Made by a program: the position numbers and the translations under genes. DNA of 64,000 nt from Amphiscolops sp. MND2022 (taxonomy: Eukaryota). The stretch's first letter is position 1; each line of letters opens with the position of its first letter. Shown piece by piece: positions 34,901 to 58,827 of this stretch. The notes beneath the pieces are model-generated. The model was not told where the DNA came from. It did not search any database and worked only from the letters and a program-made list of their open reading frames with translations. The DNA is taken from NCBI GenBank assembly GCA_964187785.1, contig OZ076409.1:41108001-41172000 (forward strand). Direction: 5' to 3'.

Positions 34901-35659
34901 CTCGTTTCGGTGACTATTCAAATCGTAGAATATTCAAACGCCGAAAAAATCAAGGCTATTCAAAGCGTCGAAAGAATTCTATAGCAGCGATTATTTTCAG
35001 ATTATAAATTGAAGAGGTTAGCATATTTGTTGTATGGCTCGGTCGCTTCGCTCCATTCGCCAAGTAGCAACATTGAGGCATGGCCATATGGCACGTCGCT
35101 CCGCTCCGCTCCGCTTCGCTCCTGCATTTAGGGCACTAGGGGTATGTGAGCATAGCTGATTACATTATCGTAATTAGTTCGTCGCTTGTGCTGTATTCAT
35201 TTTACTGAATTTGATGGGCTCCCCTAGTCGAGCCTGCATGAACTTTTTGCATGTTGCATGAATGCATGCAGGGAAACTTTTTAAAAAACCTAGAAAATTC
35301 AGGGATCCTGCAGGGAAAAATCTTGTAAAACTTCCCTGCATCTTGGAAAATCATGTAAAACTTTCCTGCATCTTTGAAAATCTTGGAAGTTTTACCCTGC
35401 GCTTTCAAAAAAAAGCTCTGCAACCTAATAAATCTGCGGAAAAATGACCAATTTTCAGATGAAAACTTTTAGAAAAAGTCACTGGAACCTATGAAATTTT
35501 GAGCAAGAGTTCACTTGAAAACGATGACTTCGCTCGAAATCCTCTTCTGATAGAAAACAAAAAAAATAGAAAAATACACTAAATTTGATAAGTGAATTTC
35601 AAAACAAATTATAAAAAATGTATAGAAATTCTAAAACATCAGTTTCAGTCTTAGCTGAG

Positions 35660-38600
35660 GTTTTCGGGAACCATCTGACATCAAGAAACGGGACATCAAA
35701 CTCGTAGAGAATCTGCAATAGTTGCGAGCAAGCTTCCACGACAGAAACGATTCCACGAGAATGCTTCTGAAACAGAAAATGTGTATCAGTTCACTGATTC
35801 CAGAAAACACTCTAAACTGGGTAAAAAGACAACACAATGAAAAGTTTGGAAGGCTTTTCAGTAAGAATGAAATGTGGTCCTTTTCTGACATTAGAAACAT
35901 GGTTCTTCGCTGATTCGGTTACACCAAAGACAAATTGCGCTGACAAAAAAGTTCAGAAACGCTTGCTTTTTGCAACAGAATATATGTTAATAAAGCCCAA
36001 AGGGTCCCCCTTTTACATTTTTCGGCACTAGGCGACATTTTCTGAAAGAAAAAAATTCGCTTTTGCGCTTTTTGAGCCTTAGATATGGCGCCGACTTTAG
36101 ACGTTCCCGTCTTGTTCCTGATTCGGTTACACCAAAGACAAACTGTGCTAACAAAAAAGTTCAGAAACGCTTGCTTGTTGAACGAAAGACAATAAAAAGA
36201 TGTTTTCCAAGGCGAAGTATGTCATAGTCCTTTTGAAAAATCTCGCTTTTTTTCTGATAAAAAGAACAATACTGCCCAGCACGATGGTTGAATGCGGAGG
36301 TCCACAGAAAAGAGGTTTTTGGAAGCCACCTGACATCAAGAAACGGGACATCGAACTCGTAGAGAATCTGCAATAGTTGCAAGCAAGCTTCCACGACAAA
36401 CGATTCCACGAGAATGCTTCTGAAACAGAAAATATGTATCAGTTCACTGACTCCAGAAAACAGTCAAAACTGGGTAAAAAGACAACACAATGAAAAATTT
36501 GGAAGGCTTTTCAGTAAGAATGAAATGTGGTCCTTTTCTGACATTAGAAACATGGTTCTTTGCTGATTCGGTTACACCAAAGACAGATTGCGCTGACAAA
36601 AAAGTTCAGAAACGCTTGCTTTTTGCAACAGAATATATGTTAATAAAGCCCAAAGGGTCCCCCTTTTACATTTTTCGGCACTAGGCGACATTTTCTGAAA
36701 GAAAAAATTCGCTTTTGCGCTTTTTGAGCCTTAGATATGGCGCCGACTTTAGACGTTCCCGTCTTGTTCCTGATTCGGTTACACCAAAGACAAACTGTGC
36801 TAACAAAAAAGTTCAGAAACGCTTGCTTGTTGAACGAAAGACAATAAAAAGATGTTTTCCAAGGCGAAGTATGTCATAGTCCTTTTGAAAAATCTCGCTT
36901 TTTTTCTGATAAAAAGAACAATACTGCCCAGCACGATGGTTGAATGCGGAGGTCCACAGAAAAGAGGTTTTTGGAAGCCACCTGACATCAAGAAACGGGA
37001 CATCGAACTCGTAGAGAATCTGCAATAGTTGCAAGCAAGCTTCCACGACAAACGATTCCACGAGAATGCTTCTGAAACAGAAAATATGTATCAGTTCACT
37101 GACTCCAGAAAACAGTCAAAACTGGGTAAAAAGACAACACAATGAAAAATTTGGAAGGCTTTTCAGTAAGAATGAAATGTGGTCCTTTTCTGATATTAGA
37201 AGCATGGTTTTTTGCGGTTTCGGTTACACCAAAGACAAATTGCGCTGACAAAAAAGTTCAGAAACGCTTGCTTTTTGCAACAGAATATATGTTAATAAAG
37301 CCCAAAGGGTCCACCCTTTTACATTTTTTGGCACTATGCGACATTTTCTGAAAGAAAAAAATTCGCTTTTGCGCTTTTTGAGCCTTAGATATGGCGCCGA
37401 CTTTAGACGTTCCCGTCTTGTTCCTGATTCGGTTACACCAAAGACAAACTGCGCTAACAAAAAAGTTCAGAAACGCTTGCTTGTTGAACGAAAGACAATA
37501 AAAAGATGTTTTCCAAGGCGAAGTATGTCATAGTCCTTTTGAAAAATCTCGCTTTTTTCTGATAAAAAGAACAATACTGCCCAGCACGATGGTTGAATGC
37601 GGAGGTCCACAGAAACAAGGTTTTCGGAAGCCACCTGACTTCAATAAACGGGAAATCCAACTCGTAGAGAATCTGCAATAGTAGCAAGCAAGCTTCCACG
37701 ACAGGAATGATTCCACGAGGATGCTTCTGAAACAGAAAATATGTATCAGTTCACTGATTCCAGAAAACAGTCAAAACTGGGTAAAAAGACAACACAATGA
37801 AAAATTTGAAAGGCTTTCCAGTAGGAATGAAATGTGGTCCTTTTCTGACATTAGAAACATGGTTTTTTCTGATTCGGTTACATCAAAGACAAATTGCGCT
37901 ATCAAAAAAGTTCAGAAACGCTTGCTTTTTGAACGAAGGACAAAAAAAAGATGTTTTCCAAGGCGAAATATGTCATAGTCCAATCGAAAAATTTCGCTCT
38001 TTCGTCTAATAAAAAGAACAATACTGCCCAGCACGATGGTTGAATGCGGAGGTCCACAGAAACGAGGTTTTTGGAAGCCACTTTACATCAAGGAACGGGA
38101 CATCAACCGCGTAGAGAAACTGCAATAGTTGCAAGCAAGCTTCCACGACAAACGATTCCACGAGGATGCTTCTGAAACAGAAAATATGTATCAGTTCACT
38201 GATTCTAGAAAACAGTCAAAACTGGGTAAAAAGACAACAGAATGAAAAATTTGAAAGGCTTTCCAGTAGGAATGAAATGTGGTCCTTTTCTGACATTAGA
38301 AACATGGTTTTTTCTGATTCGGTTACATCAAAGACAAATTGCGCTATCAAAAAAGTTCAGAAACGCTTGCTTTTTGAACGAAGGACAAAAAAAAGATGTT
38401 TTCCAAGGCGAAATATGTCATAGTCCTATCGAAAAATTTCGCTCTTTTCTCTAATAAAAGGAACAATACTGCCCAGCATGATGGTTGAATGCGGAGGTCC
38501 ACAGAAACGAGGTTTTCGGAAGCCATCTGACATCAAGAAACGGGACATCAAACTCCTAGGGAATCTGCACTAGCTGCAAGTCGGCTTCCACGGCAGAATT

Positions 38601-40345
38601 GATTCCACAAGAAAGCTTCTGAAACAGAAAATATGTATCACTTCCTTGATTCCAAAACGAAACAGTCAAAACAGGGTGAAAAGACAACATTGAAAAATTC
38701 GAAAGGCTTTCCCGTAAGAATGAAATGTGGTCCTTTTCTGACATTAGAAACATGGTTTTTCCTGATTCGGTTACACCAAAGACAAATTGCGCTAACAAAA
38801 AAGTTCAGAAACGCTTGCTTTTTGAACGAAAGACAATAAAAAGATGTTTTCCAAGGCGAAATATGCCATAGTCCTATTGAAAAATTTCGCTCTTTTCTCT
38901 AATAAAAAGAACAACACTGCCAAGCAGGATGGTTGACTGCGGAGGTCTTCGGAAACGAGGTTTTCGGAAGCCATCTGACATCAAGAAACGGGACATCAAA
39001 CTCCCAAGGAATCTGCACTAGCTGCAAGTCGGCCTCCACGACAGAAAAGATTCCACGAGAAAGCTTCTGAAACAGAAAATATGTATCTGTTCCTTGATTC
39101 CAAAAAGGAACAGTCAAAACAGGGATAAAAGACTACACAGTGAAAAATTTGAAAGGCTTTCCCGTAAGAATGAAATGTGGTCCTTTGCTGGCATTAGAAA
39201 CGTGGTTTTTTTAGTTGGCGCTTTTCTAGTGAAAAGTGCCCGACTATTAGAGTTGCTAGTTTTTTTTCTTTTATTTTTGTCAGACTACAATCTCACTCTG
39301 ATTGGTCAACTTTTCGTCCAATCGAAACTACTAAAACTACTACCATAAGGCCAAGTCCGGTCAGCGGTAATTAGTGCAAAAGGGTCCCCCCTTTCATTTT
39401 TTACCTTTTAACGTAACCTACAAAACCGGACGAGACTAAAGGGTCCCCCTTTCGATTTTGTGGCCTTGTGCGACTTTTTCGAAAATTTTTTAATGTCTCA
39501 AAAAAACCCTCTTTCAAGTTTTGTGATATTTTGCAACAGGGAATGTTAATAAAGCCCAAAGGGTCCCGCTTTTACATTTTTCGGCACAATGCGACATTTT
39601 CTGAAAGAAAAAAATTCGCTTTTGAGCTTTTTGAGCCTTAGATATGGCGCCGACTTTAGACGTTCCCGTCTTGTTCCTGATTCGGTTACACCAAAGACAA
39701 ACTGCGCTAACAAAAAAGTTCAGAAACACTTGCTTGTTGAACGAAAGACAATAAAAAGATGTTTTCCAAGGCGAAGTATGTCATAGTCCTTTTGAAAAAT
39801 CTCGCTTTTTTCTGATAAAAAGAACAATACTGCCCAGCACGATGGTTGAATGCGGAGGTCCACAGAAAAGAGGTTTTTGGAAGCCACCTGACATCAAGAA
39901 ACGGGACATCGAACTCGTAGAGAATCTGCAATAGTTGCAAGCAAGCTTCCACGACAAACGATTCCACGAGAATGCTTCTGAAACAGATAATATGTATCAG
40001 TTCACTGACTCCAGAAACAGTCAAAACTGGGTACAAAGACAACTTAATGAAAAAATTTGAACAGCTTTTCAGTAGGAATGAAATTTAGTCCTTTTGACAT
40101 TAGAAACATGGTTTTTTCTGATTCGGTTGCACCGAAGACAAGTTGCGCTACCGAAAAAGTTCAGAAACTTTCGAATAGTTCCAAGTTGGATATAGAACGA
40201 TGTCACTGGGTACCAGAAACGCTTGCATTATCGAATGAAAGACATTGAAAATAGAAGTTTCAAGGCAAATTATCTGTCATCTGAAAAGTTTGTTATTTTC
40301 TGTAGTCGAGAGAAACAATTTACCCAGCACAAAGGTTGAATGCTG
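35660..40345. repeat. Tandem array: 446-bp base unit, 652-bp derived unit, about 8 copies
   Basis: ACATCAAGAAACGGGACATC-type motif recurs with spacings of about 655, 652, 652, 446, 446, 448 and 913 bp. Confidence 0.95.
39209..39675 (+). mobile_element. Non-autonomous Helentron (HINE/DINE-1-like)
   Basis: Inserted in a T-run of the 446-bp unit without TSD; 5' subTIR/hairpin AGTTGGCGCTTTTC-TAGT-GAAAAGTGCCCGACT, 3' subTIR GGCGCCGACT, 3' stem-loop GACG-TTCC-CGTC then TTGTT. Confidence 0.75.
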
Positions 40346-40504
40346 TTCGGTCCGGCTGATTTACTGTGAGGTCCAAAGGGCCCAGTCTTCGATAAGGCGG
40401 TGATTACAACATCAAGTCTAGAACAAACATGTGTCATCAGTTTGGATTCATTTTCGAGTTATTTCAATCAATTATAAAAAAGCCAGTGGATAAATAACAA
40501 GCAG

Positions 40505-41103
40505 TCATAACAGAGATTTTATTAGTTTATTGAACAAGCGCGCTGCATGGTAAACCCCGAAGTCATTTAAGTGAACATTGTCTTCAAGGAAATGTCCGTG
40601 AGCGCCAATGGCTCGAGGACTGTAGTAGCACTCAGGAAATGTTTCTACTAATAAATTGTTTGTTTCTGTAACGAGCTCTCGCTCAACATCTGGGCGAGGG
40701 ATCATCCCAATTATGTGCAACTGCGCATTGGCATTTCGCTTTTGCAAAAGAGTATTGAAAATTAGGAAACTGTTTGCAACATCTCCTGGACTCTCCGCCT
40801 TCAGGTTTTCTTTGAACGGGTGCTGGGAAAGGTCATTATTCCCACAAAAAAGAATAATATGATGGTAATGATCAACCAGATCGAGCAGTTTTCCGAGATG
40901 CCTTGCCCGCAATCCACTTACTGCGCACCAGTGGATATTGCTACTGAAAACAAAATTGAATTAGAATCAATCGAACTGCAACACTCACAGCAAGCGAACG
41001 AACTACTTACTCAAGACCCATATAATTGCGAAGAAGTGGATCTTCGGAGAAAGGCACTATGCACCTTTTTAAGTTGGAGTCCCCAATAACGAGAACAGTG
41101 GTG
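40505..41103 (-). CDS. SGNH/GDSL hydrolase; exons 41103-41011 and 40943-40505, first exon not located
   Basis: Spliced (GTAAGT...TTTCAG, 67-bp intron): VLVIGDSN...VSGLRA...LFCGNNDL...GMIPRPD...DNVHLNDFG, all four SGNH blocks intact. Confidence 0.85.
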
Positions 41104-43557
41104 CTAAGAACAAAAGTGAAGCATTTTTAAAATTTACAATGTACAGCAATGAAGGTCTGACGATCTTCAGACCAAACTCTTCACCCGAAGCATGAATCAG
41201 GCGTGTTTCTACAGGTTTTATTTATTTTTCAACACTCAAAAAAGCCTCTGCTTCAGTTTGCAGTAAGACTATCGCCGTGTGTTGTATACATGTTACTATG
41301 AAATTATTCAAAATCACAAATTTGCGATATATTGACGAATCTAATGCAAGCAGCGTTGAATTAGGATGGAGGAAAGGATATCATTGAAAGTTATTTATTT
41401 GCTTCTACGTTGTCGGGAGCTCTAATATTCACTGTCTAGCACTAATTAAGTCAATTGGAAGTTCATGGATAAAATGTCGAGAAATGTTCCGTAGAAGTCG
41501 CATCCAACACAGCCAGTGCTGCATTAGATGCGTTGTTATTCAAAGTGAACTACAATGAAAAAATGATTTTTACGGACTATATTGATTAGCATCTGGGACT
41601 GAATTGGAAATTTGTTCGAAATCGTAGTTTAGTTCTATTTCCAGTAAAAATGACGGGCATATAAAACTGTTTTTTTTTTCATGTCAATGCGAGCTCAGTT
41701 AACTGATAACCAACAAATCGGTTTTTGTTGACGTCAATGAGTCTCGAAACAATTGACAGGAAAACGAGACCAAAAATTAGTATTCAAACAACTGAATTCC
41801 GCTGTACCAAAAACTATTCCTTTTTGGCAAACTCTCTTTGCCACAAAATGAACATTGATGAATTTCTTTCAGCTAGGCCAGGTCGCTTGTTGCAAAAATC
41901 TAACCAGCCAGCCACTCACTAAGCTCCGATGGATTTCGAAAACAATTCGATTAAAATCATTCGAACTCATCTCACAAGAAGCAAACAAACTATTCACTCA
42001 AGACACATATAAGTGCGAAGGAGTGGATCTTCGGAGGAAGGGGCTATGCACCTTCTCAGGTTGGAGTCCCCAATAACGAGAACAGTGGTGCTAAGAACAA
42101 ATGAAGCATTTTTTGAATTAACAATGTACGGCAATGTACCAAACTCTTCACCCGAAACGTGAATCAGGCGTGTTTTTAGGTTTTAATTATTTTTCAAGAC
42201 TCAAAAAAGCATCCGCTTGTTTGCAGTAGGACTATCGCCGTGTGTTAAATACATGTTACTATGAATTTATTAAAAACACAAAATTGCGATTTATTGATGA
42301 ATCTAACGCAAGCAACGTTGCATTAGGATGTAGAAAAGGATATCATTGAAAGTTATTTTTTTTTGCTTCTACGTTGTTGGAAGTTTTAATATTTTTTGTC
42401 TACCACTAAGAAAGTCGATTGAAAGTTCATGGATAAAATGTCGAGAAGTGTTCCGTAAGAAGTCGCATCCAACACAGCCAGTGCTGCATTAGAGGCATTG
42501 TTATTCAAATTGAACTATATAAAAAAGTGATTTTACGGACCAGATTGATTAGCATCTGGGATTGAAATAGAAAGTTGTTCGAAATCCTAGTTTGGTTCTA
42601 TTTCCAGTAAAAATGGCGGTCATATAAAACTGTTTTTTTCATGTCAATGCGAGCTCAGTTATCTGATAACCAACAAATCGGTTTTTGCTGCTGTCAATGA
42701 GTCTCGAAACAGTTGACAGGAAAACGAGACCAAAAATTAGTATTCAAACGACTGAATTCCGCTGTACCAAAAACTTTTCATTTTTGGCAAACTCTCTTTG
42801 CCACAAAATGAACATTGATGAATTTCTTTCAGCTAGGCCAGGTCGCTTGTTGCAAAAATCTAACCAGCCAGCCACTCACTAAGCTCCGATGGATTTCGAA
42901 AACAATTCGATTAAAATCATTCGAACTCATCTCACAAGAAGCAAACAAACTATTCACTCAAGACACATATAAGTGCGAAGGAGTGGATCTTCGGAGGAAG
43001 GGGCTATGCACCTTCTCAGGTTGGAGTCCCCAATAACGAGAACAGTGGTGCTAAGAACAAATGAAGCATTTTTTGAATTAACAATGTACGGCAATGTACC
43101 AAACTCTTCACCCGAAACGTGAATCAGGCGTGTTTTTTTAGGTTTTAATTATTTTTCAAGACTCAAAAAAGCATCCGCTTGTTTGCAGTAGGACTATCGC
43201 CGTGTGTTAAATACATGTTACTATGAAATTATTAAAAACACAAATTTGCGATTTATTGATGAATCTAACGCAAGCAGCGTTGCATTAAGATGGAGAAAAG
43301 GATATCATTGAAAGTTATTTTTTTGCTTCTACGTTGTTGGGAGTTCTAGTATTCACTGTCTAGCACTAAGAAAGTCAATTGAAAGTTCATGGATAAGGAT
43401 AAAATGTCGAGAAGTGTTCCGCAAGAAGTCTCATCCAACACAGCCAGTGCTGCATTAGATGCGTTGTTATTCAAATTGAACTATAATGAAAAAATGAATT
43501 TTACGGACTATATTGATTAGCATCTGGAACTGAATTAGAAATTTGTTCGAAATCCTA
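40945..43557. repeat. Tandem array, ~960-bp unit, ~2.7 copies, each with the GDS exon
   Basis: Near-identical ORF pairs 41725/42685 and 41855/42815 are 960 bp apart; more diverged copy from 40945. Confidence 0.95.
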
Positions 43558-43578
43558 TTGAACATTTCTCGCAAAATT

Positions 43579-46500
43579 CTAGTTGTGTTCGAAACCTTCT
43601 TCGATCAAACTGACAAGACAGTTCTCTATGTTACCAGAAAGAAAAACTACTCTGGTAGCTTGAAAGTCATTAACTTCAGCTGTGTCATAATTGGGATCCA
43701 GATCTCCGATCTCGTAGTAAAACGTTGTTGTTGAGTTGACAAAAGATTTTGGTCTTGCTAAACGGTATTTCTGAACAATCACAGTAGTTGATCCTTTCGG
43801 GTCATGATGATAAATTACAGTGACAACGAAATCCCCGTTCTTCAATCTTGTTATACACTCGCTCCAGTTTCTCTCGAGTCGCGAGTATGACAAGGAAGCC
43901 AAGACTTGCGACCAGCAGGGAAAGCGATAACGACTGCAAAAATGTCCCGGTCCACACTCGAGTGTTGCGAAAGTCTTACTTGTTCCCACCGGCGCTGTGA
44001 AGGCATCATCGAGAACTTCAGCTTCAATTAAAGCAGGTACTCTTTGCTGGCGTAGCAAAAAGTTATCCACTACATGCGACAAACTTTTGTTAGTCCCTTG
44101 AACGGAGCTTAATAAGAAGTGGTTGGCCGACTCGAAGGCAAACGCTGAGTTTCTCCAGAGCGGACCTTTACGGTGTACCTGTTGAGTAACATGGAGGAGT
44201 TTTGTAAAAAAAAAGAACTCGAAACAACACAAACTGATGACGACAATAAACGAATTTTCAGTCATCCCCGTTTTGTTTTCAAAAAGGCCTCATACGTTGC
44301 CAAAAAATGTGCTTCTCGTAGCCTGATTGCTGTGACACAAGATTCTAAATGAATGAGTTTTTAGAAAAAAACCTTGAAAAACGATTTTTATCGACAACTT
44401 CAAAAAGGAAAGTAACTCATCCCTGATCAGTTAGATGTCGCAAAGTTTGGAAGTTGAAACTCTGGGAATCACGGCCATAAAGCTCAACGAAGTTCGCTAG
44501 GAAGTCACATGTGAGTTTCGTTGACTCTGAAAGGTGGGATTCAACACACTTTCTCATTGAGAGTAGCCTTATAACATATGATAACTGGTTGAAGGAAAGG
44601 TGGAACTCGTATTGTATTAGTCCTTCCAAACAAAAACTGCCATAGTGAAAAAGGAAACATTTGAAGTCCCTGGCTTTCCAAAAAAGCAACTCAGAAAGCG
44701 GTTTCGCCTTCACGTTCAAGTACCTTGGACTTCTACAGTTTCTTAGACGATCTTCTGCTATCACACTGTTATGTTTTGACAAAGACCCAACAAGAGCAAC
44801 AATTATTGACTTTGCACACCCCAGAAAAACTTGGTGCATGGCATCAATGGGTACGTCAAAAGGTATTTGAATGATTTCGTCCAAAAAGCATCGTCCTTTT
44901 ATCCCATTCACAATTTTTTTCTCATATTCAGCTGAGATTGCATTGGCACGGAAATCGCTGGGAGAACGGCACACGAAGGGTTCTGTACATGGATAAAGGT
45001 ACCGATGATTTTCGTGAATGCCGCGCATATAACAATATATGCAACCATTGCAGCCATTAAACTGTACAACATTCAGCGATGGGGCTTTGGCTATCATATC
45101 GCAGATGAAATCTCCAAAAACAACTTTAAAATATTTCGCCAATTTATTGCTGTAAATGCCGGACTGGATGTCTAACAACTCTTTCTTGATGAGAGATCCA
45201 CAGTTCTTAAAATCCGGCTTTCCCTTACCTAGTTGAATTACCTAGTTGAAATTGATCTAACGTTTTGCAATTACATGTCCAGTCTAAAGCGAAAAATAGT
45301 AATGTTTTCGGAACTTTTTGACTTACATGAAACCGAATCGGGCAATAATTTGACAGTGTTCGATTAACTATACATACTTCCGAGATAGATATATAAAAGA
45401 AGTGCTGACTCTTTCATCTGGTTATAGTCGCAGATTAACTTCGGAAATTTATCAAAACTCGATTCAAAGCACCAGAGTGGTCTTACTTTAAAGAAGGCAA
45501 ACTCTCGTCATGTGTTGAGCAAAAAAACATGAACCGAACAAAACATCCGCAAAAAGTCCATCTGCTGCTCAAATCATTTCATTCTCGAAAAAAGTTTTTG
45601 AAAAGAATTTCAGCTAAGTTCACCTTTCCACAAAGCAATGAGTATCATATTCTCGAGGGCTGTTCGGCGAGGATTGGGAATATTGTCAATGAAAGCCCAA
45701 AAAGGCCAGAAGGACATGTTTGCGGAACGAAACGGAGAAGCGCCGTCTGTATTCCAAAACAACGTAAGTGTTTCTTCTCCAATCAAAGCATCATGATTCC
45801 TATCAACAACACGTGAAATCTGTTTTCTGGCGTCTAAAACCTCAAAGCCTTCAGCTGTGATTTTTGCTCTGCGGTGGTTCAAACTTTTGGGGACGTTGTT
45901 TGGCGTCGGTAGGAGAACCCTGATTAACTTCAGAAGTTCCTTCAAAGCATTGTCCGCCAGTTTATGTCGTACTGTGAAATCAATTACCTTGTTGCGAAAA
46001 CTTTCAACTGTCATGCTTGAGCCATCGAAGAGAAAAAAGTCATCACCAGATGAACTTTCTTCGTTGCTATTCGAGTCGGCACTTTGTTCCACAAAAGAAA
46101 ACTCCAGAGGACTTGGTAGATGCAAAGGCGTCGAACAACGAATGACTTCAGCATCGACAATTTCCGACTGTTCTCCAGTGGACTGGATAGCAGAGGAACA
46201 GGATAGTAAACGTGTTTCACTAGGTCCGGATGAACTGGAGTAAGATGAATCAGAACTTTCAAAACAAATACTCTGGTTTGATGTTTGTTGCACTTTGGGT
46301 TTTTTGCCCTGATGATTACCGTAACGCCCGACGATTCTTTTCGATTGTCTTTCAGGCAGTTCCACTTGCTTTGTTTTGACTGTACATGGACCAATATGTG
46401 TTTCAGTTAACTTTTTTTTCCTTCGCGACCGTTTCATTTCCTTAACTCTCCCCTTTTCGCCCGTAAAGCGCGCTTGAGCCCGAGTTCGACTGCTCAAAAC

Positions 46501-47294
46501 AAGAATTCCTGTACCATGGAATTCAATATGGGGACAAAGACAATCCATGTTATTCACTCCAAAGTACTCTGGCCCGTATTTCACTGTTATCTCTTCACCT
46601 CTCGTGATATTTCGCAGTAGTCGCAGCGACATCAATTGATCTTGGAAAACAACATGATTGGCTGGTGTCAAACAACAAGTTTTGATGTTTTATCATAGGT
46701 CCTTCAGGGTTTTATTAAAACCATCAATTTATACCTGATACCAATTTAGGCAGTATCAAAATTTTCTCGGATTCATTCAGTGTTTTCCAACTTTCGGGAT
46801 AACCAGTTAATTTCAGGTGTTTTCAATTTTATGAAAGAATTTAATGAAACCGTTTTATTGAGCGAACCATGTTTGACAATATAGACTGCATTCGGCCAAC
46901 ACGAATGGTTTACAAACGACAAAGGGCCTAACATCAGCTCTTCACCTTTGCGCTTGAAAATCGAAACGCTGATATCTTCAGGAAAATCGTCAGACTTTGG
47001 TAATTTGGCAAGAAACCCATCCAAATTGATAAAAGATTCTTTTTCTATTTCCTTCTTTGCGAAAACGCCGAGATTCGTATACCTTAGTGAAGGTAAATAA
47101 TCAACTGGACGGAACTCGAAATCAATACAAGCCTCTGCATACTTCTCAGTCATCAAATCGACGAGATTCTTGTTGATCTTATCACTCGAATTTGGTATCA
47201 GAACTTTGTGAGACTGCACTTGGGAGTTGTCGAACATCTGATTGGTAACATAGGCGTCAGCGATTGCTAGTTCTTTCCAGGTAAATTTGATCAT
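43579..47294 (-). CDS. SUV4-20 (KMT5B/C)-like SET domain fused to CACTA/EnSpm transposase; exons 47294-46868, 46640-45624, 45228-44423, 44178-43579 (~949 aa)
   Basis: SET: KELAIADAYVT..FD....SHK, LMLGPLSFVNHSCWPN, LRNITRGEEITVKYGPEYFGVNNMDCLC..GTG. Transposase: NTDGASPF..S.WP, LWKGKGKP, DMIAK..QFNGCNGCIYC, DAMHQVFLG, WKARD, GPLW..SAFAFES. Exon phases 1,1,0 are consistent (2850 nt); third donor is non-canonical GG. Confidence 0.88.
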
Positions 47295-47556
47295 ATCAGT
47301 TGTCACTTTTTCTGAAAAAAATCAAAACACAATACTGTAAGATCACCTTGCGCGTTTGACCAACACATGTGAGTGTTCAAACATCCACGAATGTTCCAAG
47401 TATTTTTAGTTCAGCTATAAGTAACAGTTATAATTGCACTCAAGTCTGAATGTTTTCCTTTACATTGATGATGCCTTGCTTTGAATACCAATTTCATCAA
47501 ATTTATATTTCACAAGAAACTAGAAAAATCAAACATATACTATTCAAAAATTCTCA

Positions 47557-48025
47557 TTGTTCTTCATCCTGCTTTTAATTTCAGTGCCAAGTTGATTGAC
47601 GCTGTTTCTTGCTTTGACATAGAACCCAGCTACTGAAGCGAATTTGTGCTCGATGCACTCTGAACATAGACAAAGATCTATTATTTAATGGGAAGTCAGT
47701 GGAAAATTTGGCGAAAATTAGGTCAAAGTTTACCACAAGTTATCGTGAATTAGAATGTTACCTCCAAGTCGAACAATGGTAATTACCTCGAAATAGCGCT
47801 TTTCTGGTGGGCGTCATCGCAACCCGCGGCGTTTGCATATACTCCAGGTCTTTACCTGGGGACATGATGCAAGAAGCAAGTTCCTCCTTAGACTAAAAGA
47901 CGCGAGCAATGTTTCGACCGTAAAGTGATGGTGGGTAACCAGTTAATGTCAAAAGGTCCTTTCCATCAAATATTTTCTGAGCTTGTGGCTCATCTTGGGA
48001 AGGTGCCACATTATCATGTTCCACG
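47557..48025 (-). pseudogene. Partial duplicate of the BEN-domain exons with premature stop
   Basis: Copy of ~48700-49160; IARVF*SKEEL (TGG to TAG) but correct frame RKALFR|ECIEHKF across the intron. Confidence 0.75.
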
Positions 48026-48649
48026 TATTTTTAGTTTAGCTATAAGTAACAGTTATAATTGCACTGAAGTCTGATTGTTTTCCCTTAACATTGATGATGC
48101 CTTGCTTTGAATACCTAATTCATCAATTTATATTTCACAAGAAACTAGAAAAATCAAACATATACTATTCAAAAATTCTCCCGTGACACAGGATTGCCAG
48201 ATAGAACAAAAAAGCAAGCAAATATTCATCTGAAGGAATTTGATTCAGGTGTCACTTTGGTTAAATCTAAAACCCCTTACACACAGAGAATCGTTTGTCT
48301 CAAATGCATTTCCTTTCTGTCACAGCCAGTGCTGCACCAGAAAACCGCATGTGGTTCTTGCAAAAGTCCTCCATTTTCAAAAATTTTCTTCTTTGAAATG
48401 ACCAAGACTGGTTTTGGAACAATATTATTAACTTCCTTTCTAATGACGCTTGAAAATCCAAAGATTGACAACTTTCACGTGAACAATGAGATGTTGCGTT
48501 ATCACAGTAATAACATAAAAGAACAAAAGCAAAGTTTTCTCCAGACAGATGTGCTAGAGTGTCTTCAACAAAAAAGTATTCGGAAACCTCTCATATTCTC
48601 TGGACCATAAGTTTACCGAAAGATCCAGTTTCTTGGCAAATGGTTTGCT

Positions 48650-50359
48650 TTAGGGGGTGTCGACTCCCAGGAGTCCAACTACAGGTGATTCCGTTGACTT
48701 GTTCTTCATCCTGCTTTTAATTTCAGTGCCAAGTTGATTGACGCTGTTTCTTGCTTTGACATAGGACCCAGCGACTGAAGCGAATTTGTGCTCGATGCAT
48801 TCTGAACATAGACAAAGATCTATTACTTAATGGGAAGTCTGTGGAAAATTTGGAGAAAATTAGGTCAAAGTTTACCACAAGTTATCGTGAATTAGATTGT
48901 TACCTCCAAGTCGAACAATGGTAATTACCTCGAAATAGCGCTTTCTGGTGGGCGTCATTGCAACCCGCGGCGTTTGCATATACTCCAGGTCTTTACCTGG
49001 GGACATGATGCAAGAAGCAAGTTCCTCCTTAGACCAAAGGACGCGAGCAATGTTTCGTCCGTAGAGTGATGGTGCGTCATCAGGAAATGTCAAAAGGTCC
49101 TTTCCATCAAACATTTTCTGAGCTTGTGGCTCATCTTGGGAAGGTGCCACATAATCATGTTTGCTTTGGAGCCAATCCATTACCAACGTTTGCGTCTTTA
49201 TCTGAATAAAATTGGTTTTAAGTGTCAGTTTGGTTAAATCTGAAACCCTCCACACCCAGAGAATCGTTTTTCTCAAATACATTCCTTTTCCGACACAGCC
49301 AGTGCTGCACCAGAAAACCAAATGTGGTTCTTGCAAAACCACATGTGGATGTTGCCAAAAGTCCTCCTTTTTTACGTTTAGGTTATTTGTAACAAGTTCA
49401 TTGCTGTTTATAACATTTTGGAGTGACGAAAAAGCCTGACACACTGCTGTACACTGTTTCCTAAATTGCAAAGTTTACAACGAAGTTGAACCTACTGTGT
49501 AAAGACGACTGCGAGGAAATGGAAAGGTTTATATCGGAAACGAAGAAGCTAAACAAGGACGAAGAAGTCTGAAACTATCCAATTAGTGGACTAAATTAAT
49601 TGATGAAGAAGAGAGTTGAAAACTATGTGAACTGACAAACATCCTCCCGCAAATAGGGGTTTTTAGAACAATATGCATCATCATAATAAGAACAACAAAT
49701 ACTAACAATTGATTTGAAATCCTTAACATTTTTTCTCCATCTGGACTCGCAATTGTCATGTGCAGATCTCGAAAGCTCGATTTTGTCCTCCATCCTCAGA
49801 AGACAACGAAGGGTTTGCTGCATGATTTCTTTCTAAAGACAGGAACATGTCCATTCAGTACAAAAAAAGCTTTATTGACTCTTTTAGCAAACATACCATT
49901 TCCGATATGTCCGCAGACATATTGTCTTCTTTACCCGAACTCGAACTTTTCTCCAATTTCGCACTTTTGGGGGGAGGGGCAAGTTCATCTTCACTGTCGG
50001 AATCCATTTCCATCGAAAAATGTGGAGACTCGGGGACGTTGGACACCTTACGCGCGTTGCCTTGACTCTGGTTGAGTGAAATATCAGAGACATTTATATT
50101 TTCGCCGTCCTCGATTCGTCTCATTATCTGCTCAGCTTCTTTTTCTTGCACTTTGACTTCGGCATTAGTGCCGAGGAACCAAATTTTTCCTACATAATCA
50201 CCGCTCGCGCAGCGAACAGTGATTTTATCATTTTTCGCGAGCCCTAAGCGCTCAACTAAGTCAAGTTTGACTATTGCAGGAGATCGGTAATCAAGGGCAA
50301 CGTACGAATTGTCCACAGTGAACCGCACTATAAAGGCACGATCTCTGTCTTCAAATTCC
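48650..50359 (-). pseudogene. BEN-domain accessory gene of the CACTA element; exons 50359-49897, 49832-49707, 49201-48929, 48801-48650, 1-nt frameshift
   Basis: Canonical GT-AG introns; coiled coil then FDGKDLL..PSLYGRNIARVLWSKEELASCIMSP..RVAMTP..ECIEHKF..ARNSVNQLG, a BEN-like pattern. Confidence 0.65.
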
Positions 50360-50399
50360 CTGAAACCTTTGTTGAGGCGCTTCGAGCTGAAATTGATAA

Positions 50400-53300
50400 C
50401 CAGCAATAAGGAACAGCTCACAAAATGAAATACGAGATCGAAAAATCCACTATTGGAAAAAACGAACCTTGTGTGTTTGCAAGTAAATTTTTAGTAGGTT
50501 GATAAAGTAAAAATTCGGAAGTTTAAATGTTGGACGGTTGTTTGAACATTATTGATTTTTTGAAAGTTTCCAGGACCTCTTTCGTCGGAAGTCGCATCTA
50601 CCACAGCCAGTGCCGCACTAGAAGTACAACCGACCATGGAAAAAAGTCTTTGGCGAACAGAAACCAATATCCGCCTTGTTAAGGTTCGCCGAAACTTTCT
50701 AATTGTTCCGACGAAAAAGTGAAAAATGGTACCGAATTGTGCACAAACTAGTTGGAGGATAACTTGAACTATAAGACAAGCGGAAAAATGCAATTCGTGA
50801 GAGACACAAAATATTACGATAGTCATGAGTCGGAAAGTCAAGGAGAACAATTTCCGTCCCTGTAAGTTAGGAGCAAAGCACAAATACGCGGGAAAATAGA
50901 AAACCACGTGAATCAAGTTATCTCCCGGAACACGATCGAAGCAACATGTAGAACTAACGAACTCGTAAGACCCCATTTGATGGAAATTTTCCGCAGCAAT
51001 AAGGAACAGCTCACAAAACGAAATACGCTAGAGATCAAAAAAACATTATTAGAAAAAACGAACTTTGTGTGTCTGCAAGTAAATTTTGTTTAGTAGGTTT
51101 AGTAGGTTGACGAAGTAAAAATTCGGAAGTTTAAATGTTAGACGTTGTTTGAACATTATTGATTTTTAGAAAGTTTCCAGGACCTCTTTCGTCGGAAGTC
51201 GCATCTACCACAGCCAGTGCCGCACTAGAAGTACAACCGACCATGGAAAAAAGTCTTTGGAGAACAGAAACCAATATCCGCCTTGTTACGGTTCGCCGAA
51301 ACTTTCTAATTGTTCCGACAAAAAAATCAAAAATGGTACCGAATCGTGCACAAACTAGTTGGAGGATAACTTGAACTATAAGACAAGCGGAAAAATGCAA
51401 TTCGTGAGAGACACGAAATATTACGATAGTCATGAGTCGGAAAGTCAAGGAGAACAATTTCCGTCCCTGTAAGTTAGGAGCAAAGCACAAATACGCGGGA
51501 AAATAGAAAACCACGTGAATCAAGTTATCTCCCGGAACACGATCGAAGCAACATGTAGAACTAACGAACTCGTAAGACCCCATTTGATGGAAATTTTCCG
51601 CAGCAATAAGGAACAGCTCACAAAACGAAATACGCTAGAGATCAAAAAAACATTATTAGAAAAAACGAACTTTGTGTGTCTGCAAGTAAATTTTGTTTAG
51701 TAGGTTTAGTAGGTTGACGAAGTAAAAATTCGGAAGTTTAAATGTTAGACGTTGTTTGAACATTATTGATTTTTAGAAAGTTTCCAGGACCTCTTTCGTC
51801 GGAAGTCGCATCTACCACAGCCAGTGCCGCACTAGAAGTACAACCGACCATGGAAAAAAGTCTTTGGAGAACAGAAACCAATATCCGCCTTGTTACGGTT
51901 CGCCGAAACTTTCTAATTGTTCCGACAAAAAAATCAAAAATGGTACCGAATCGTGCACAAACTAGTTGGAGGATAACTTGAACTATAAGACAAGCGGAAA
52001 AATGCAATTCGTGAGAGACACGAAATATTACGATAGTCATGAGTCGGAAAGTCAAGGAGAACAATTTCCGTCCCTGTAAGTTAGGAGCAAAGCACAAATA
52101 CGCGGGAAAATAGAAAACCACGTGAATCAAGTTATCTCCCGGAACACGATCGAAGCAACATGCAGAACTAACGAACTCCTAATACCCCATTTGATGGAAA
52201 TTTTCCGCAGCAATAAGGAACAGCTCACAAAACGAAATACGCTAGAGATCAAAAAAACATTATTAGAAAAAACGAACTTTGTGTGTCTGCAAGTAAATTT
52301 TGTTTAGTAGGTTTAGTAGGTTGACGAAGTAAAAATTCGGAAGTTTATATGTTAGACGTTGTTTGAACATTATTGATTTTTAGAAAGTTTCCAGGACCTC
52401 TTTCGTCGGAAGTCGCATCTACCACAGCCAGTGCCGCACTAGAAGTACAACCGACCATGGAAAAAAGTCTTTGGAGAACAGAAACCAATATCCGCCTTGT
52501 TACGGTTCGCCGAAACTTTCTAATTGTTCCGACAAAAAAATCAAAAATGGTACCGAATCGTGCACAAACTAGTTGGAGGATAACTTGAACTATAAGACAA
52601 GCGGAAAAATGCAATTCGTGAGAGACACGAAATATTACGATAGTCATGAGTCGGAAAGTCAAGGAGAACAATTTCCGTCCCTGTAAGTTAGGAGCAAAGC
52701 ACAAATACGCGGGAAAATAGAAAACCACGTGAATCAAGTTATCTCCCGGAACACGATCGAAGCAACATGTAGAACTAACGAACTCGTAAGACCCCATTTG
52801 ATGGAAATTTTCCGCAGCAATAAGGAACAGCTCACAAAACGAAATACGCTAGAGATCAAAAAAACATTATTAGAAAAAACGAACTTTGTGTGTCTGCAAG
52901 TAAATTTTGTTTAGTAGGTTTAGTAGGTTGACGAAGTAAAAATTCGGAAGTTTAAATGTTAGACGTTGTTTGAACATTATTGATTTTTAGAAAGTTTCCA
53001 GGACCTCTTTCGTCGGAAGTCGCATCTACCACAGCCAGTGCCGCACTAGAAGTACAACCGACCATGGAAAAAAGTCTTTGGAGAACAGAAACCAATATCC
53101 GCCTTGTTACGGTTCGCCGAAACTTTCTAATTGTTCCGACAAAAAAATCAAAAATGGTACCGAATCGTGCACAAACTAGTTGGAGGATAACTTGAACTAT
53201 AAGACAAGCGGAAAAATGCAATTCGTGAGAGACACGAAATATTACGACAGTCATGAGTCGGAAAGTCAAGGAGAACAATTTCCGTCCCTGTAAGTTAGGA

Positions 53301-54078
53301 GCAAAGCACAAATACGCGGGAAAATAGAAAACCACGTGAATCAAGTTATCTCCCGGAACACGATCGAAGCAACATGCAGAACTAACGAACTCCTAATACC
53401 CCATTTGATGGAAATTTTCCGCAGCAATAAGGAACAGCTCACAAAACGAAATACGCTAGAGATCAAAAAAACATTATTAGAAAAAACGAACTTTGTGTGT
53501 CTGCAAGTAAATTTTGTTTAGTAGGTTTAGTAGGTTGACGAAGTAAAAATTCGGAAGTTTATATGTTAGACGTTGTTTGAACATTATTGATTTTTAGAAA
53601 GTTTCCAGGACCTCTTTCGTCGGAAGTCGCATCTACCACAGCCAGTGCCGCACTAGAAGTACAACCGACCATGGAAAAAAGTCTTTGGAGAACAGAAACC
53701 AATATCCGCCTTGTTACGGTTCGCCGAAACTTTCTAATTGTTCCGACAAAAAAATCAAAAATGGTACCGAATCGTGCACAAACTAGTTGGAGGATAACTT
53801 GAACTATAAGACAAGCGGAAAAATGCAATTCGTGAGAGACACGAAATATTACGATAGTCATGAGTCGGAAAGTCAAGGAGAACAATTTCCGTCCCTGTAA
53901 GTTAGGAGCAAAGCACAAATACGCGGGAAAATAGAAAACCACGTGAATCAAGTTATCTCCCGGAACACGATCGAAACAACATGCAGAACTAACGAACTCC
54001 TAATACCCCATTTGATGGAAATTTTCCGCAGCAATAAGGAACAGCTCACAAAACAAAACACGCTAGAGATAAAAAAAC
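50400..54078. repeat. Highly homogeneous tandem array, 607-bp unit, about 6 copies
   Basis: Near-identical ORFs at 50908, 51515, 52122, 52729, 53336 and 53943 (exact 607-bp period). Confidence 0.98.
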
Positions 54079-54097
54079 ATGCCCATTTAGAAAGATC

Positions 54098-54905
54098 CAC
54101 CGATGTTTTCGATCTTTGCGAATCTGTGCAGATCTGCAGGATTTTTGCAGCTCTTTGCAGATATGTGCAGATTCGAAAAACTCGACATAGGCAGATACAC
54201 AATAAAAAACCCACAGCGATGTCAAACGAATAATAAAAATGTTTAAAACTGGAGATATCTCATTTACGACAAAATGATAAAAAAATTTTCTGTAGCAATC
54301 TGTTAAGGTCTGTAGAGATTACAAATCTTCACAGAGCCAAACAATGACCAATAAATTACTATAACGTATTCCAAGTCAACAGCAACTACTAAAAATACTC
54401 CAGCAAACTATGTTGCGGAAATATTATAGCAACACTTTATCAACACACCGACCAACCCAGGTTGCCACATGTCAAATTTCATCCGCCAAAATTAAGTCAA
54501 TATGGCAAACGAGCCACTCAATGATCAACCACCACTTCTGAAAAGTTCAAGTGAAATGGATGAATTACGGAGTATAACCAATAGCGCACTTTCTCCCGTC
54601 ACCAAAATTGCCGTGATGGGGACAAATTTTCCTTCTCGAGAATTTTGAGTGATGGAGAGTTTCAACTGACTGGCCCTAGGTCAGCTAAAAGTCTCGATAA
54701 AGTAGTTGAAGAAGTCCAAAAATGCAGTATATTGGTTCCTTAGAAGCTGCAGAAAACCATATTTATGCAAAAATCTTCAAAGAAAATCTGCACACTTCTG
54801 TAAAGATCTTGCAGATCTGTATGGATCTTCAAGATTCAGTGCAACGATCTTTGCAGATCCCTGCAGAGAAAATACTGTAGATTTGCAAAGATCGAAAACC
54901 AAGTG
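54098..54905. mobile_element. CAC-terminated CMC-type MITE nested in the large element
   Basis: Left CACCGATGTTTTCGATCTTTGC, right GCAAAGATCGAAAACCAAGTG; TGCAGATC subterminal repeats. Confidence 0.7.
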
Positions 54906-56447
54906 AACAGTTCAATTTAACCACATTCTTGGTTTATTCATAATTTAGGGACAAATAAGAAACAATCAGTTATGTAAATTAACATTGAATCTAAAGTCAA
55001 ATACTAAAAGTAGGGCTGATTTACATTAACCACAGAGATCAGCACATAGGTTTTCAATTCCAGATGGGGCTCCAGACAATATTTGCTCGAGCTCATTTAA
55101 GGAGTATGCAATTTTTTTATTTTTTTACTGGCTGAAACATTGAATTAGATATAATACACACAATGTAAAAAAAAACAAAGGTGCACTACAATAACAAAAC
55201 AGACAATTTACAATAGTATCTACGTTTCAGTGCAAGCATCGATGAAGTTGGCTGATAAGGATTCGTTTGGACTATGCGCACAATTTTGAAACTCAAACAT
55301 CGACCCTCATTAATCTAACAGCATAACGAGCAAATAGCCGTTCTCAACATTGAACCAAAATGAAGTACTATCCAACAAGATTAACACGAATGCTAAATGA
55401 GGTCGCAGACTTATATCCACAGATATAATTAATCAAATATTGCAATATTTCAGCAATAAAAGCAGCTCTTCGGAAATAGCCAATGCAGATAATTTGAACG
55501 AGCGATTTTGACAGATAACCAAGAAACAACATATAATCAAAATAAATTGTTTGGTGACATCATTTTAATCCTCTTTATTTTTCTATCTTTTCTCCTCTGC
55601 TTTCAGCTTTTCTTTATGGGGACCGTGCGAAGCGAAACTATGTTGGTCTGCAACAGGAATGATGGCCCAGAGTTCAAAAAAACAGACAATTTACATGTCA
55701 AAGGATGAAATGGCACTAGGGACTAGGGTCAAAGTCAGTGATAATCTAGAAAGATCGAAAACCTGGGTTCAAACCTTAATTAAACCCATCCAGTTAAAGA
55801 TGTCAAAAATCCAGCATAGTGTTTAGAAAATTTTGAAAATTGTAAATTCTCGCGCACCTTTACAATTGTAAAAAAACTTGAACAGTGCTGGACGCGAACA
55901 CAAATTCATGGTACCTAGCCGCGCACACTGACCAAAATACAGGGAAACCACTGAGTTCGAAAACGATTGTTGTCATAAAAAAAGGATTTCCCAAAAGATC
56001 CTAAGAATCATCCTGGGATCTCATATTAGGAAGTTTTAAAACACTTGAATTTCTGTTATTTTACTAGATTGAGAAAATGTAATACATTTTAAAACTGGTA
56101 TGAACGCTCGGAAACGCTCACCTTCTTTCTGATTGAGAGGATGATTCGGTCATGATTGAGGGTACTAGTTTCCAGATCAAAGGCAGATTCAGGTTGATTT
56201 TGAACAGAACAGTGTTCAAGGCTTCAAATTCACAACAATTCTGAAAAATGCAAAAAAAATTCTCAACTGACAATAACGATGATGAAATTGCAGAAATCTG
56301 TTAGGTAGCTTTTCTTATGTAGAAAATATTTTCCCATGCTTTTGTAAATTTTTTTTAGTGCCGCCTTAGAACTAATGGAAATAGGACTAATTGAAATAGG
56401 ACTAAAACAACTTTTGGCATGGAAAAATTGCAATTAGGTAGATCAAA

Positions 56448-56702
56448 TTAGAAATCAAATTTGTCATAGTCTGCTATGAATGCTCCACAGCATTTGCAAC
56501 AACGGTTGCGGAAACAAATTTCGCATACCATATGACCACATGGTCGTAACAAATAAGAAATTTTTTCCTCACAACCGCAACATAGACCAAAATTTTCTTC
56601 CGATTCAGTTTCTGAGCAATTGAGAACATTGTTTTTGTCAACTTCGTCATTTTCATCGTCAACATCCCTCTCATCATCACTTTCTTGATAATTTCCAATC
56701 AC
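56448..56702 (-). pseudogene. C3HC4 RING-finger fragment after an acidic tract
   Basis: CCGCEEKISYLLRPCGHMVCEICFRNRCCKCC; upstream in-frame stop. Confidence 0.75.
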
Positions 56703-56861
56703 GACACCGCAGCCTTGTCTTCAATGCATCCGAGTTGTTTTTCGTATATATGTAGCCATCATGGACATAGTTTTTTGTGTTCTTCTTCAAACCTTCGATT
56801 ATTTCGAAATCTGATGACATCACTCCCTAGAAACTTTGAAGTTTGTTAGTTCTAATTCAGG

Positions 56862-57128
56862 TTACCCAAAAATTTTATGCACTGTTTCCAAGTTATGGGA
56901 TCTGAGAATTCGAATTATGGATCTGTTGCAAGCTAATATAGTATAAACTCCGTCAACAGACATGATTACGTCATTAATGGTCAACCTTTCCTCGGGGCTA
57001 CTGGATTCGTCCAAGCTTGCAATTACCACTCCTTCCAGAGAGAAAACTGACAAAGAGGTTTTGCTGGTTGCAAGTATGTATCCACTAGCAGGGTTCAGGA
57101 CTACGTTTGAAACAATTAGTTCTAACAA
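56862..57128 (-). pseudogene. WD40-repeat fragment resembling BEACH-protein C-termini
   Basis: GYILA..LSVFSLEGVVIA..INDVIMSVDGVYTILAC..IRILRSHNL beta-propeller blade pattern. Confidence 0.45.
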
Positions 57129-58827
57129 ATTAGTTCTAACTCCCGTAAAAATTAGTTCTAATTCCTGTTTGAGAGAATACGAAATTAGTTCTATTTCCTA
57201 TGAACGTGTCAGAAATTTTGAGCATGTTAGTCCTAATTCCATTAGTTCTATTTCTTTAGTCCGATTTCCGTTTCCCCCATATTGCTCAAGATTCAAATTT
57301 TGTACTGCCGTTTATCTTCGCTGTTGCAAAAAAATTAAAATGATAAAAGTTATTCGACTTTTTGAAAAAAAAATTTCACGTCGAATGAAAAAAGTTTCGA
57401 TTTTTTTGTTCCTTCTGAGAACTTTTCACTGAAAATAGCGTCAGTTCTTTTCTTTTCCTTTTGATTCTCGACTTTAATAGGTAATAGGAAAGTCAAACTA
57501 TGAAGTTTTAAACAGTCCAATGAAAATCTCTCATTTTCAATATTACGCTCTAAAGTAGTTCCATCGAGATTTTCTCAGGATACCATGAAAACTTATAATT
57601 TTCTGCCCTAATGACTTTAAGTCGTGACAAATTTTCTATGACCTTATGTTTTTCAGGCGAAAAAAAATTGAACCGCGCTGACGATTTTTCAGTGAGACGA
57701 ATTTTTTTGCTTCAGTGGCACATTTAGATGAGTTTGTTCACATCTGAAGTAGCGTCTGTGCATACAAGAACCCTCACTTTGCCCGCAAAAACTAACAAAA
57801 GTTTTGCGGGTTTTCGTCCTCTACAACTTTGATGCTTCTCGTAAAACCCGCCAAATTTTGCATAAACCTTGATTAAAACCTGGATAATTATCAGCTCAAC
57901 AGCGAAATTTTCGAGCATGAAAACATCTCAAAGAATCACCCAAAATTTTATTAAAAGTATCAGGCAACCTATAAAAACATGTAAAAAGTTCATGCACTGT
58001 GAACAAGGGTCATTGAATGAAAGTTTGGTCACGTGACTATGACGCGCAGTATTTACTGCGTGTAAACTACTTTCGACGCTTTGAATATTCTACGATTTGA
58101 ATCGTCCCCACTCGTTTCTTTTTGAAGAATACTCCGTTTTGATTGAAACTTCTGCCACAAAAGGTCGAATTTTTAACATTCAGGATCAATTCGACGAGCT
58201 TCGATACCGAATAGAAAGTTCTCGCGAATTAGAAGTAAAGGGTCTAAACAAAAAAGATTGAGCAAACTGAGGCTCTAATAGGTCAGCAAACCGATAAGTG
58301 CTCACAAAAATTTTGTTTTTAACTGAACTGCTCTTTGTAAGAGGGAAACACATTTCAGCGGGTAAATTTCTTTATTGCTGAGTTTTTGCAAACAGTTTGA
58401 AAGACGGGCAAAAAAGTCACTATAGTCACTATATATACTCAGTCCGTATTTCAATGAACGTGGACTCAAAGCAGGTGAAAATCAACTGACATTGACGAAG
58501 ACCAGGGCAAATCCTTCTAAGAATTCACAAAATCAGCTTCTTTCATCAACTATTTTGTCTAAAAACTTTTGCCTCAGAACGCAAAAATCACTTCATTGTA
58601 GAACACTTTATTCTTAATGAATTTAAAGTATTCATATGTTCATTGAAAACAAATGAAGAGACTTGAAGTGAAGGTGTTACTTCTAAGCTTATATCAGCTC
58701 ACTCGTGTGTTGTTGCATCTAAAAATACTAAAGTAAAAAGAGAAAATAATAGAAGCAGTTTTATTCAGCATCTGATCTAGAGCTAGCGCAAAATAAAACT
58801 AAACTGAGTTATAGTTCTATATAGACA

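Follow-up and report, generated by a model that had tools for sequence, protein, structure and literature searches.

Introduction

Methylation of histone H4 lysine 20 (H4K20) has links to heterochromatin, to the licensing of replication and to the repair of breaks. SET-bearing DNA transposons as such are already known, from SETMAR and from HarbingerS and certain MuDR families of the oomycete Phytophthora, which carry a SET histone methyltransferase (Kojima and Jurka 2014, cited in PMC12730594). Here we describe a transposon in a 64,000-nucleotide stretch of Amphiscolops sp. MND2022 (assembly GCA_964187785.1, contig OZ076409.1, positions 41,108,001 to 41,172,000), which we call the window and number from its first base. 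The element is a decayed CMC/EnSpm-type transposon whose transposase gene model has an N-terminal SET domain of the SUV4-20 (KMT5B/C) type.

Members of the CMC/CMCT clade have target duplications of 2-5 bp and a RAG1/Transib-like fold, and their ends are CA..TG 'in most cases', which is not an absolute criterion (PMC12730594). Strict-sense CACTA elements have CACTA/TAGTG ends and a 3-bp duplication (PMC4158355). Chondrus crispus has enlarged En/Spm families of 16-20 kb, and GDSL esterases occur in Terminons (PMC6431247). In SUV4-20, Ser161 holds the target lysine and H4 is recognised largely via main-chain contacts, and a Tyr at the switch position is the usual mono-methylase state in other SET domains (Southall et al., PMC3874154). 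The original prediction for the window was a 22.8-kb, cargo-laden CACTA element inserted in a miniature inverted-repeat transposable element (MITE), with a SET-transposase among its genes.

Results

A CMC transposase with an N-terminal SET domain

Four open reading frame (ORF) pieces join in one frame, without an internal stop, into the transposase model of Table 1. The catalytic aspartates lie in NTDG and CDMI, the glutamate lies in FESAN, and CxxC (GCNGC) and DAMH motifs are present; these are the DDE and C(2)C/H motifs by which the CMC clade is defined (PMC12730594). Residues 5-949 align with an intronless relative, P0054, at 31% identity (E 3e-128). Introns 1, 2 and 3 are bounded by GT-AG, GT-AG and GG-AG, respectively. 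The relatives P0190 and P0047 span junction 1 and P0039 spans junction 2. Exon 2 has five near-copies in ENA, on contigs of 49-811 kb (92-99%, 3-22 differences), and each of them stops at the identical read-through into intron 2. One-off damage as the source of interruptions 1 and 2 was rejected, since junction 2 is common to all five near-copies and the joins restore colinearity. Intron 3, with its GG donor, stands directly before the exon that holds the catalytic Glu, and this copy of the transposase is therefore likely defective; the donor is presumably a point change or an assembly error. The lesions in the element comprise this donor and the disruption of both BEN copies, and the element copy is now likely non-autonomous. 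At each of their two ends, introns 2 (45229-45623) and 3 (44179-44422) carry AGG, extended to AGGT in intron 2. Close relatives are without introns 1 and 2, and recent intron gain in the transposase is possible.

The SET domain of the window ORF was recognised by Pfam (E 3.5e-5), and its only PDB matches are SUV420H2. A profile of the family matched SUV420H1/H2 in the PDB at E 2.7e-31 to 5.6e-28, with KMT2D as the next family at 9.8e-12. When the AlphaFold model of P0054 was searched with Foldseek, Suv4-20h2 ranked first (3.9e-12) and RAG1 second (8.8e-12), with BbRAGL at 4.3e-10; the RAG1/Transib-like fold is thus seen in the model of this relative rather than of the window protein. The predicted local distance difference test score (pLDDT) of the P0054 model averages 65, lies mostly at 70-94 in the SET domain and core, and falls below 50 in the linker (199-363) and tail (844-1006), giving a SUV4-20 fold and a RAG1-like core joined by a disordered linker. 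In the structure search of this model, identity to SUV4-20 is 21-28%, a deep divergence. Judged by both sequence and structural matches, the SET domain is closest to the SUV4-20 type.

Residues were counted in 49 SET-bearing family proteins, down to about 25% identity, with Ser161, Phe191 and Tyr217 numbered from the SUV420H2 PDB match and PMC3874154. The equivalent of Ser161 is present in 49/49 and in the window model, and the equivalent of Tyr217 and each of three zinc cysteines are likewise found in 49/49. The Asn of the NHxC motif, which binds S-adenosylmethionine (SAM), is kept in 47/49. The Ser and the SET-I motif that are specific to SUV4-20 are invariant in the family.

The fusion is shared by a diverse family

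On sequence comparison, the SET-transposase fusion is shared by a diverse family of related transposases. A search with exon 2 matched 2 of 5031 longer candidates, one of them P0002, a 1072-aa SET-DUF1258 protein, and the SET region of P0002 in turn matched 31 of 1253 candidates. Precomputed SET and DUF1258 annotations accompany 30 of these, the remaining one has a SET domain by the family profile, and one of the 31 is named, from the acoel Convolutriloba macropyga. A search for representatives returned 464 proteins; among the best 150 of the 464, 16 had SET and core, 13 SET only, 114 core only and 7 neither, as scored with profiles built partly from those same rows. Pairwise identity among full-length SET members is 23-36% (n=7 compared). 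Family clusters reach 54 members and relatives are often intronless; P0054, P0093, P0140 and P0002 are intronless, apparently intact and encode the fusion in one frame.

A quick tree of 49 transposase cores was midpoint-rooted, after rows covering <55% of the core had been dropped and the P0002 subfamily thinned to 7. All 15 SET rows fall in one 18-row group, with a Shimodaira-Hasegawa-like approximate likelihood ratio test (SH-aLRT) support of 83, and the other three rows of the group begin in the linker region and may be fragments. The SET/no-SET label changes 4 times on the tree compared with 13.1 in shuffles (0/500 as low), and on these sequences a single origin of the fusion is likely. 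The Pfam score and the best PDB match given above support the SET-transposase gene of the original prediction. Instead of incidental cargo, SET is a long-standing in-frame component of the transposase in a diverse family.

A metagenome scan with the family profile gave SET-only matches at 68 loci, with a transposase match at 0/68. The best of these (L001, 9827-11590) is a SUV4-20/Set9-like gene that stands alone, has Phe at the switch and lies near no transposase. Among viral contigs, 0/122 pattern matches were confirmed.

One insertion split a MITE

The element extends from 35222 (CCC) to 58009 (GGG), as originally predicted, with 25/32 identity between its terminal inverted repeats (TIRs) and a TC target duplication at 35220-35221 and 58010-58011. 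The TIR match alone is within chance, with 2.5 expected over all position pairs in the 64-kb window. Rejoining 34909-35221 and 58012-58109 yields a 411-bp MITE with ends that are 28/30 alike and a further internal inverted match of 18/18; its end match is beyond chance (2.4e-5 expected over window position pairs). Given the MITE ends, the arithmetic expectation for an inner end pair lying no more than 500 bp from each is about 3e-4. Because the MITE ends exceed chance and the inner pair is expected so rarely, we conclude that one insertion split the MITE, and these end statistics support the nesting that had been proposed. The TIRs of the MITE itself also stand, while the 9-mers taken as its target duplication match at 8/9 positions rather than 9/9. 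Its 9-bp duplication suggests that the MITE is Mutator-like. Neither a second copy of either element end nor a second MITE copy was found within the window, and no internal TIR-like or MITE-end copies were found inside the element. The left TIR is followed by CCTGCA-rich subterminal repeats to about 35520. A cluster of 8-9 (A)TCTGCA copies at 54100-54900, about 15-fold enriched, resembles these repeats, and the right end itself is without them.

With CCC/GGG ends rather than CACTA/TAGTG and a duplication of 2 bp rather than 3 bp, the element is a decayed CMC/EnSpm-type cut-and-paste DNA transposon and not a CACTA element in the strict sense, and the earlier label fails on both counts. The TC duplication, seen at one site only, falls within the 2-5 bp of the CMC/CMCT clade, and the CCC..GGG ends depart from CA..TG. 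Among the EnSpm families of animals, CCC termini and 2-bp duplications are frequent. Over half of the 22,788 bases (12,752, or 56%) lie in four tandem or duplicated blocks, and by arithmetic the element would measure about 13-14 kb with each repeat block counted once. The bulk of the element comes mostly from internal tandem expansion and not from cargo, so that "cargo-laden" does not describe its 22.8 kb. Array B consists of repeats of the stretch preceding and including SGNH exon 1.

A hairpin recurs between the genes

A 15-nt hairpin core occurs in 11 copies without mismatch, all on the coding strand and all inside the element (41497-53660), with none in the rest of the window. The motif was first picked by eye; 0.12 copies are expected, and 0/100 shuffles held as many. 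The copies stand in three contexts that share merely 16-35 bases. In context B the hairpin follows the transposase stop by 126 bases and recurs in the repeats preceding SGNH; in context C it follows the BEN stop by 314 bases, and the disrupted BEN gene contains a duplicate; in context D it lies within each 607-bp unit ahead of BEN. On the coding strand, all seven folded copies form an identical stem with an ACUG loop, at z -1.5 to -6.0, and the opposite strand gives z of about 0 (n=4). Across an alignment of 6 distinct rows, 91% of cells pair, compared with 31-50% in slid controls. Four of the 15 pairs change on both sides, which is not above shuffles (114/500) with only three independent contexts. 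As a control for the outer stem we used 78 chance matches of the core in viral contigs, which average 3.5 of 9 outer pairs. The B copies form 8-9 outer pairs and the C copies 7-8 (0-1/78 controls as high), and the D copies form 6 (8/78 controls as high, and 32/78 fold equally well). Rfam gave four sub-threshold matches, none of them at a hairpin copy. A Smaug-type CUGGC loop was rejected by inspection, as that register pairs 3 bases only.

The invariant G-U pairs point to a hairpin at the RNA level, and one hairpin per gene interval would fit the processing of a co-transcribed unit. Spliced-leader trans-splicing is common in at least one acoel (10,433 genes; PMC9911081). The intergenic hairpin is likely an RNA processing or control signal, although it may instead act at the level of DNA or in a promoter.

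Accessory genes and the rest of the window

The SGNH exons form one open frame in which blocks I, II, III and V read GDS, SG, GNND and DNVH. The gene scores 0.96 in the ESM Atlas and has two relatives (51%, 69%) among 15 candidates; its start codon was not found, and the window ORF is without a Pfam match. The BEN gene matches Atlas clusters at 0.95, in which 12-25% of members have BEN, and it has no Pfam match. It carries a 1-bp frameshift ahead of its last donor, no single middle exon joins its upstream ORF in frame, and the single-sequence fold of the BEN exon (pLDDT 43) is too low for use. The Atlas score and the four blocks in one spliced frame support the SGNH gene as originally predicted, the Atlas score more tentatively supports the BEN gene, and all recognisable genes were confirmed to lie on the minus strand. 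The predicted RING fragment stands less firmly: a RING-like finger is present, with Pfam scores below the cut-off both for it (E 0.0025; PDB RING matches at E 0.046-4.9) and for the FLYWCH-like piece beside it (E 0.0036). This stretch is possibly a broken accessory gene or a Mutator-derived fragment. The predicted WD40 fragment was rejected, with Pfam at E 0.044-0.077 and no WD40 among the PDB search matches.

The window as a whole has a G+C of about 38%, which falls within the 36.7-39.1% of acoels (PMC9911081) without being diagnostic. G+C climbs to 45-56% across 59000-64000, where an 864-aa ORF (60554-63148, minus strand), without a Pfam or PDB match, is perhaps part of a retroelement. ORF pieces at 14519-16775 (minus strand) resemble, by eye, a second, unrelated transposase-like gene; they match no Pfam family below E 0.05, and 15349-15939 is without a PDB match. 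A C2H2 zinc-finger ORF lies at 12395-12850 on the plus strand. Dispersed inverted repeat copies (5898-6320 with 17490-17727 and 20267-20444; 9897-11660) and a 148-bp palindrome (19977-20124) are probably other non-autonomous elements.

Table 1. Coordinates of the element, its genes and repeats, and the interrupted MITE.
Feature	Coordinates	Strand	Details
Left target duplication of MITE	34900..34908		8/9 identical to 58110-58118
MITE, left part	34909..35221		final two bases are the TC duplication
Left TIR (CCC...)	35222..35253	+	
Tandem array A	35657..40168		units of ~653 and ~447 bp, 85-97% alike; without recognised gene
SGNH/GDSL hydrolase gene	40505..41103	-	exons 41103-41011, 40943-40505
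Tandem array B	40946..43557	-	~2.6 units of 960-990 bp; SGNH exon 1 and one hairpin per unit
Best hairpin copy	41497..41532	-	15/15 pairs, ACUG loop
Further 15-nt core copies	42473-42487, 43439-43453, 48321-48335, 49294-49308	-	plus six in array D (50602-53651)
SUV4-20-type SET-CMC transposase	43579..47294	-	exons 47294-46868, 46640-45624, 45228-44423, 44178-43579; 949 aa
Duplicated region around BEN exons	47391-49338		repeated in part only
Second, partial BEN-exon copy	47557..48020	-	premature stop
BEN-domain gene in pieces	48649..50490	-	upstream ORF 50490-49897; BEN exons 49201-48929, 48801-48649
Tandem array D	50401..54080	-	six units of 607 bp (94-99.8% alike), one hairpin per unit
FLYWCH-like piece, frame change, acidic linker, RING-like finger	56448..56820	-	FLYWCH 56820-56680; RING ~56582-56454
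Short ORF earlier called WD40	56862..57197	-	WD40 not supported
Right TIR (...GGG)	57978..58009	-	followed by TC at 58010-58011
MITE, right part, and its target duplication	58012..58118		58012-58109 and 58110-58118

Discussion

With confidence that is evenly divided, we propose that this decayed CMC/EnSpm-type transposon within a MITE carries a SUV4-20-type SET domain that likely binds SAM and the H4K20 tail, and is likely a mono-methylating writer. We read the invariance of the active site as selection on a working SAM and lysine site, and for this reason we favor a writer of H4K20. The N-terminal SET domain of the transposase would bind SAM and the histone H4 lysine-20 tail, and would then methylate H4K20, with mono-methylation predicted, on nucleosomes at the element ends or the target site. 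We speculate that the purpose would be to steer repair of the excision and insertion breaks, or to keep the new copy from silent chromatin. BEN likely corresponds to ORF2/TnpA, as an accessory protein that binds DNA sequence-specifically, and SGNH is likely an accessory esterase. A broader hypothesis, tentative and in our view more doubtful than probable, is that an undescribed animal CMC lineage captured SUV4-20 once and re-tuned it into an H4K20me1 writer on the transposase, with co-oriented genes arranged like an operon and punctuated by the hairpin.

Several points weigh against a writer of H4K20 in a gene-bearing transposon family. The switch residue, Phe191 in SUV4-20, is Tyr in 42, Phe in 6 and His in 1 of the 49 proteins and Tyr in the window, and a Phe-to-Tyr change in Suv4-20h1 caused a 'dramatic loss of activity' (PMC3874154). 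The NHxC His persists in 10 of the proteins, the window included, and 39/49 have another residue there. Histone H4 is assigned as the substrate by homology only. The exon-2 near-copies, five in all, need not be separate loci and could stem from alleles or other assemblies, and the Convolutriloba macropyga relative belongs to a subfamily about 26% identical to the window protein. The tree was quick and midpoint-rooted with support of 83, and its starred branches force at least three changes. It is in this window only that BEN, SGNH and the TIRs are seen together with the family.

The changed switch and the lost His would both suit a SET domain that is a non-catalytic reader or tether, with a lysine channel that binds H4K20-marked nucleosomes and directs insertion in the manner proposed for Chromo and PHD fusions. 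The crippling of Suv4-20h1 by the equivalent mutation (PMC3874154) points the same way, and reader fusions are the commonest chromatin-transposon fusions (bioRxiv 2021.11.30.470311). However, the NHxC Asn (47/49), the Ser and the SET-C Tyr (49/49 each) are kept across about 25% identity, and in other SET domains a switch Tyr is what canonically marks a mono-methylase (PMC3874154); we take a tether seriously while considering it unlikely. Deep divergence from SUV4-20 (21-28% identity) and the changed switch residue could also be explained by an active SET domain with a non-histone substrate, whether the transposase itself, the BEN protein or a host silencing factor, and main-chain recognition of H4 could ease such a change (PMC3874154). 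We find this improbable, given that the SUV4-20-specific Ser and SET-I motif are invariant and that all top-ranked solved relatives act on H4K20.

Any of these readings of the SET domain is compatible with a chance composite, in which an ordinary CMC element gathered BEN, SGNH, FLYWCH-RING and the arrays after insertion, leaving only the SET-transposase as the family's own. In its favor, Mutator elements usually have FLYWCH, tandem or duplicated sequence makes up 56% of the element, exact look-up of eight window ORFs found none in the collection, and the two SGNH relatives lie on contigs that differ in length from all those of the exon-2 near-copies. Yet all genes lie on one strand, the same hairpin precedes BEN, the transposase and SGNH in three largely unrelated contexts and occurs nowhere outside the element in the window, and the element holds no internal TIR-like or MITE-end copies that we could find, and we judge a composite unlikely, if well short of far-fetched. 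Introns and the precedent of SETMAR could suggest that the SET-transposase is a domesticated host gene. We rejected this as very improbable, because the gene is enclosed by TIRs and a target duplication within a MITE, the copy is damaged, and its relatives are many, diverse, often intronless and in clusters of up to 54 members.

A SET-fused CMC transposon lineage is apparently undescribed. No report of a SUV4-20-CMC fusion appeared in the literature searched, a search with Repbase Reports and Dfam outside its scope, and the excerpts of PMC4455052 and bioRxiv 2026.08.24.746577 hold nothing on it. SET is among the 823 chromatin-transposon fusion models of bioRxiv 2021.11.30.470311, whose Supplementary Table 6 could list such a fusion. 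With the apparently intact intronless members, it becomes directly testable whether a transposase writes or reads a histone mark so as to choose or protect its insertion site, the natural Ser-plus-Tyr active site tests the model of SUV4-20 product specificity, and the intergenic hairpin is an unexplained cis-RNA signal. If the broader hypothesis is true, the transposase would edit the chromatin that it cuts and enters.

Compared with CMC/CMCT elements (EnSpm/CACTA, Mirage, Chapaev; Pfam DUF1258, Transposase_21), the element shares the DDE core with C(2)C and H motifs, the RAG1-like fold, a short duplication, accessory genes and left-end subterminal repeats, and it differs in its CCC/GGG ends with a 2-bp duplication, N-terminal SET domain, SGNH gene and intergenic hairpin. 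The Chondrus En/Spm families are likewise large and multi-ORF, and Terminons likewise have an esterase as an accessory gene, but size here is largely tandem expansion and the cited esterases are in retroelements. SUV420H1/H2 and fungal Set9 are the best sequence and structure match, with Ser161, Tyr217 and zinc cysteines kept; unlike them, the family has Tyr at the switch, has often lost the NHxC His and is fused to a transposase, and the window subfamily lacks the last zinc cysteine (with His residues nearby). HarbingerS and SET-bearing MuDR are also DNA transposons with a SET histone methyltransferase, but of other superfamilies and in oomycete hosts. SETMAR/Metnase, too, has SET fused N-terminally to a transposase; it is a primate gene that was domesticated, its transposase being of the mariner type and its SET domain of the H3K36 type, whereas here we have an element with ends and a diverse family. 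SETMAR is thus a case of a host taming a SET-transposase, and here it is apparently the transposons that have maintained the fusion and diversified it, with an enzyme of the H4K20 type.

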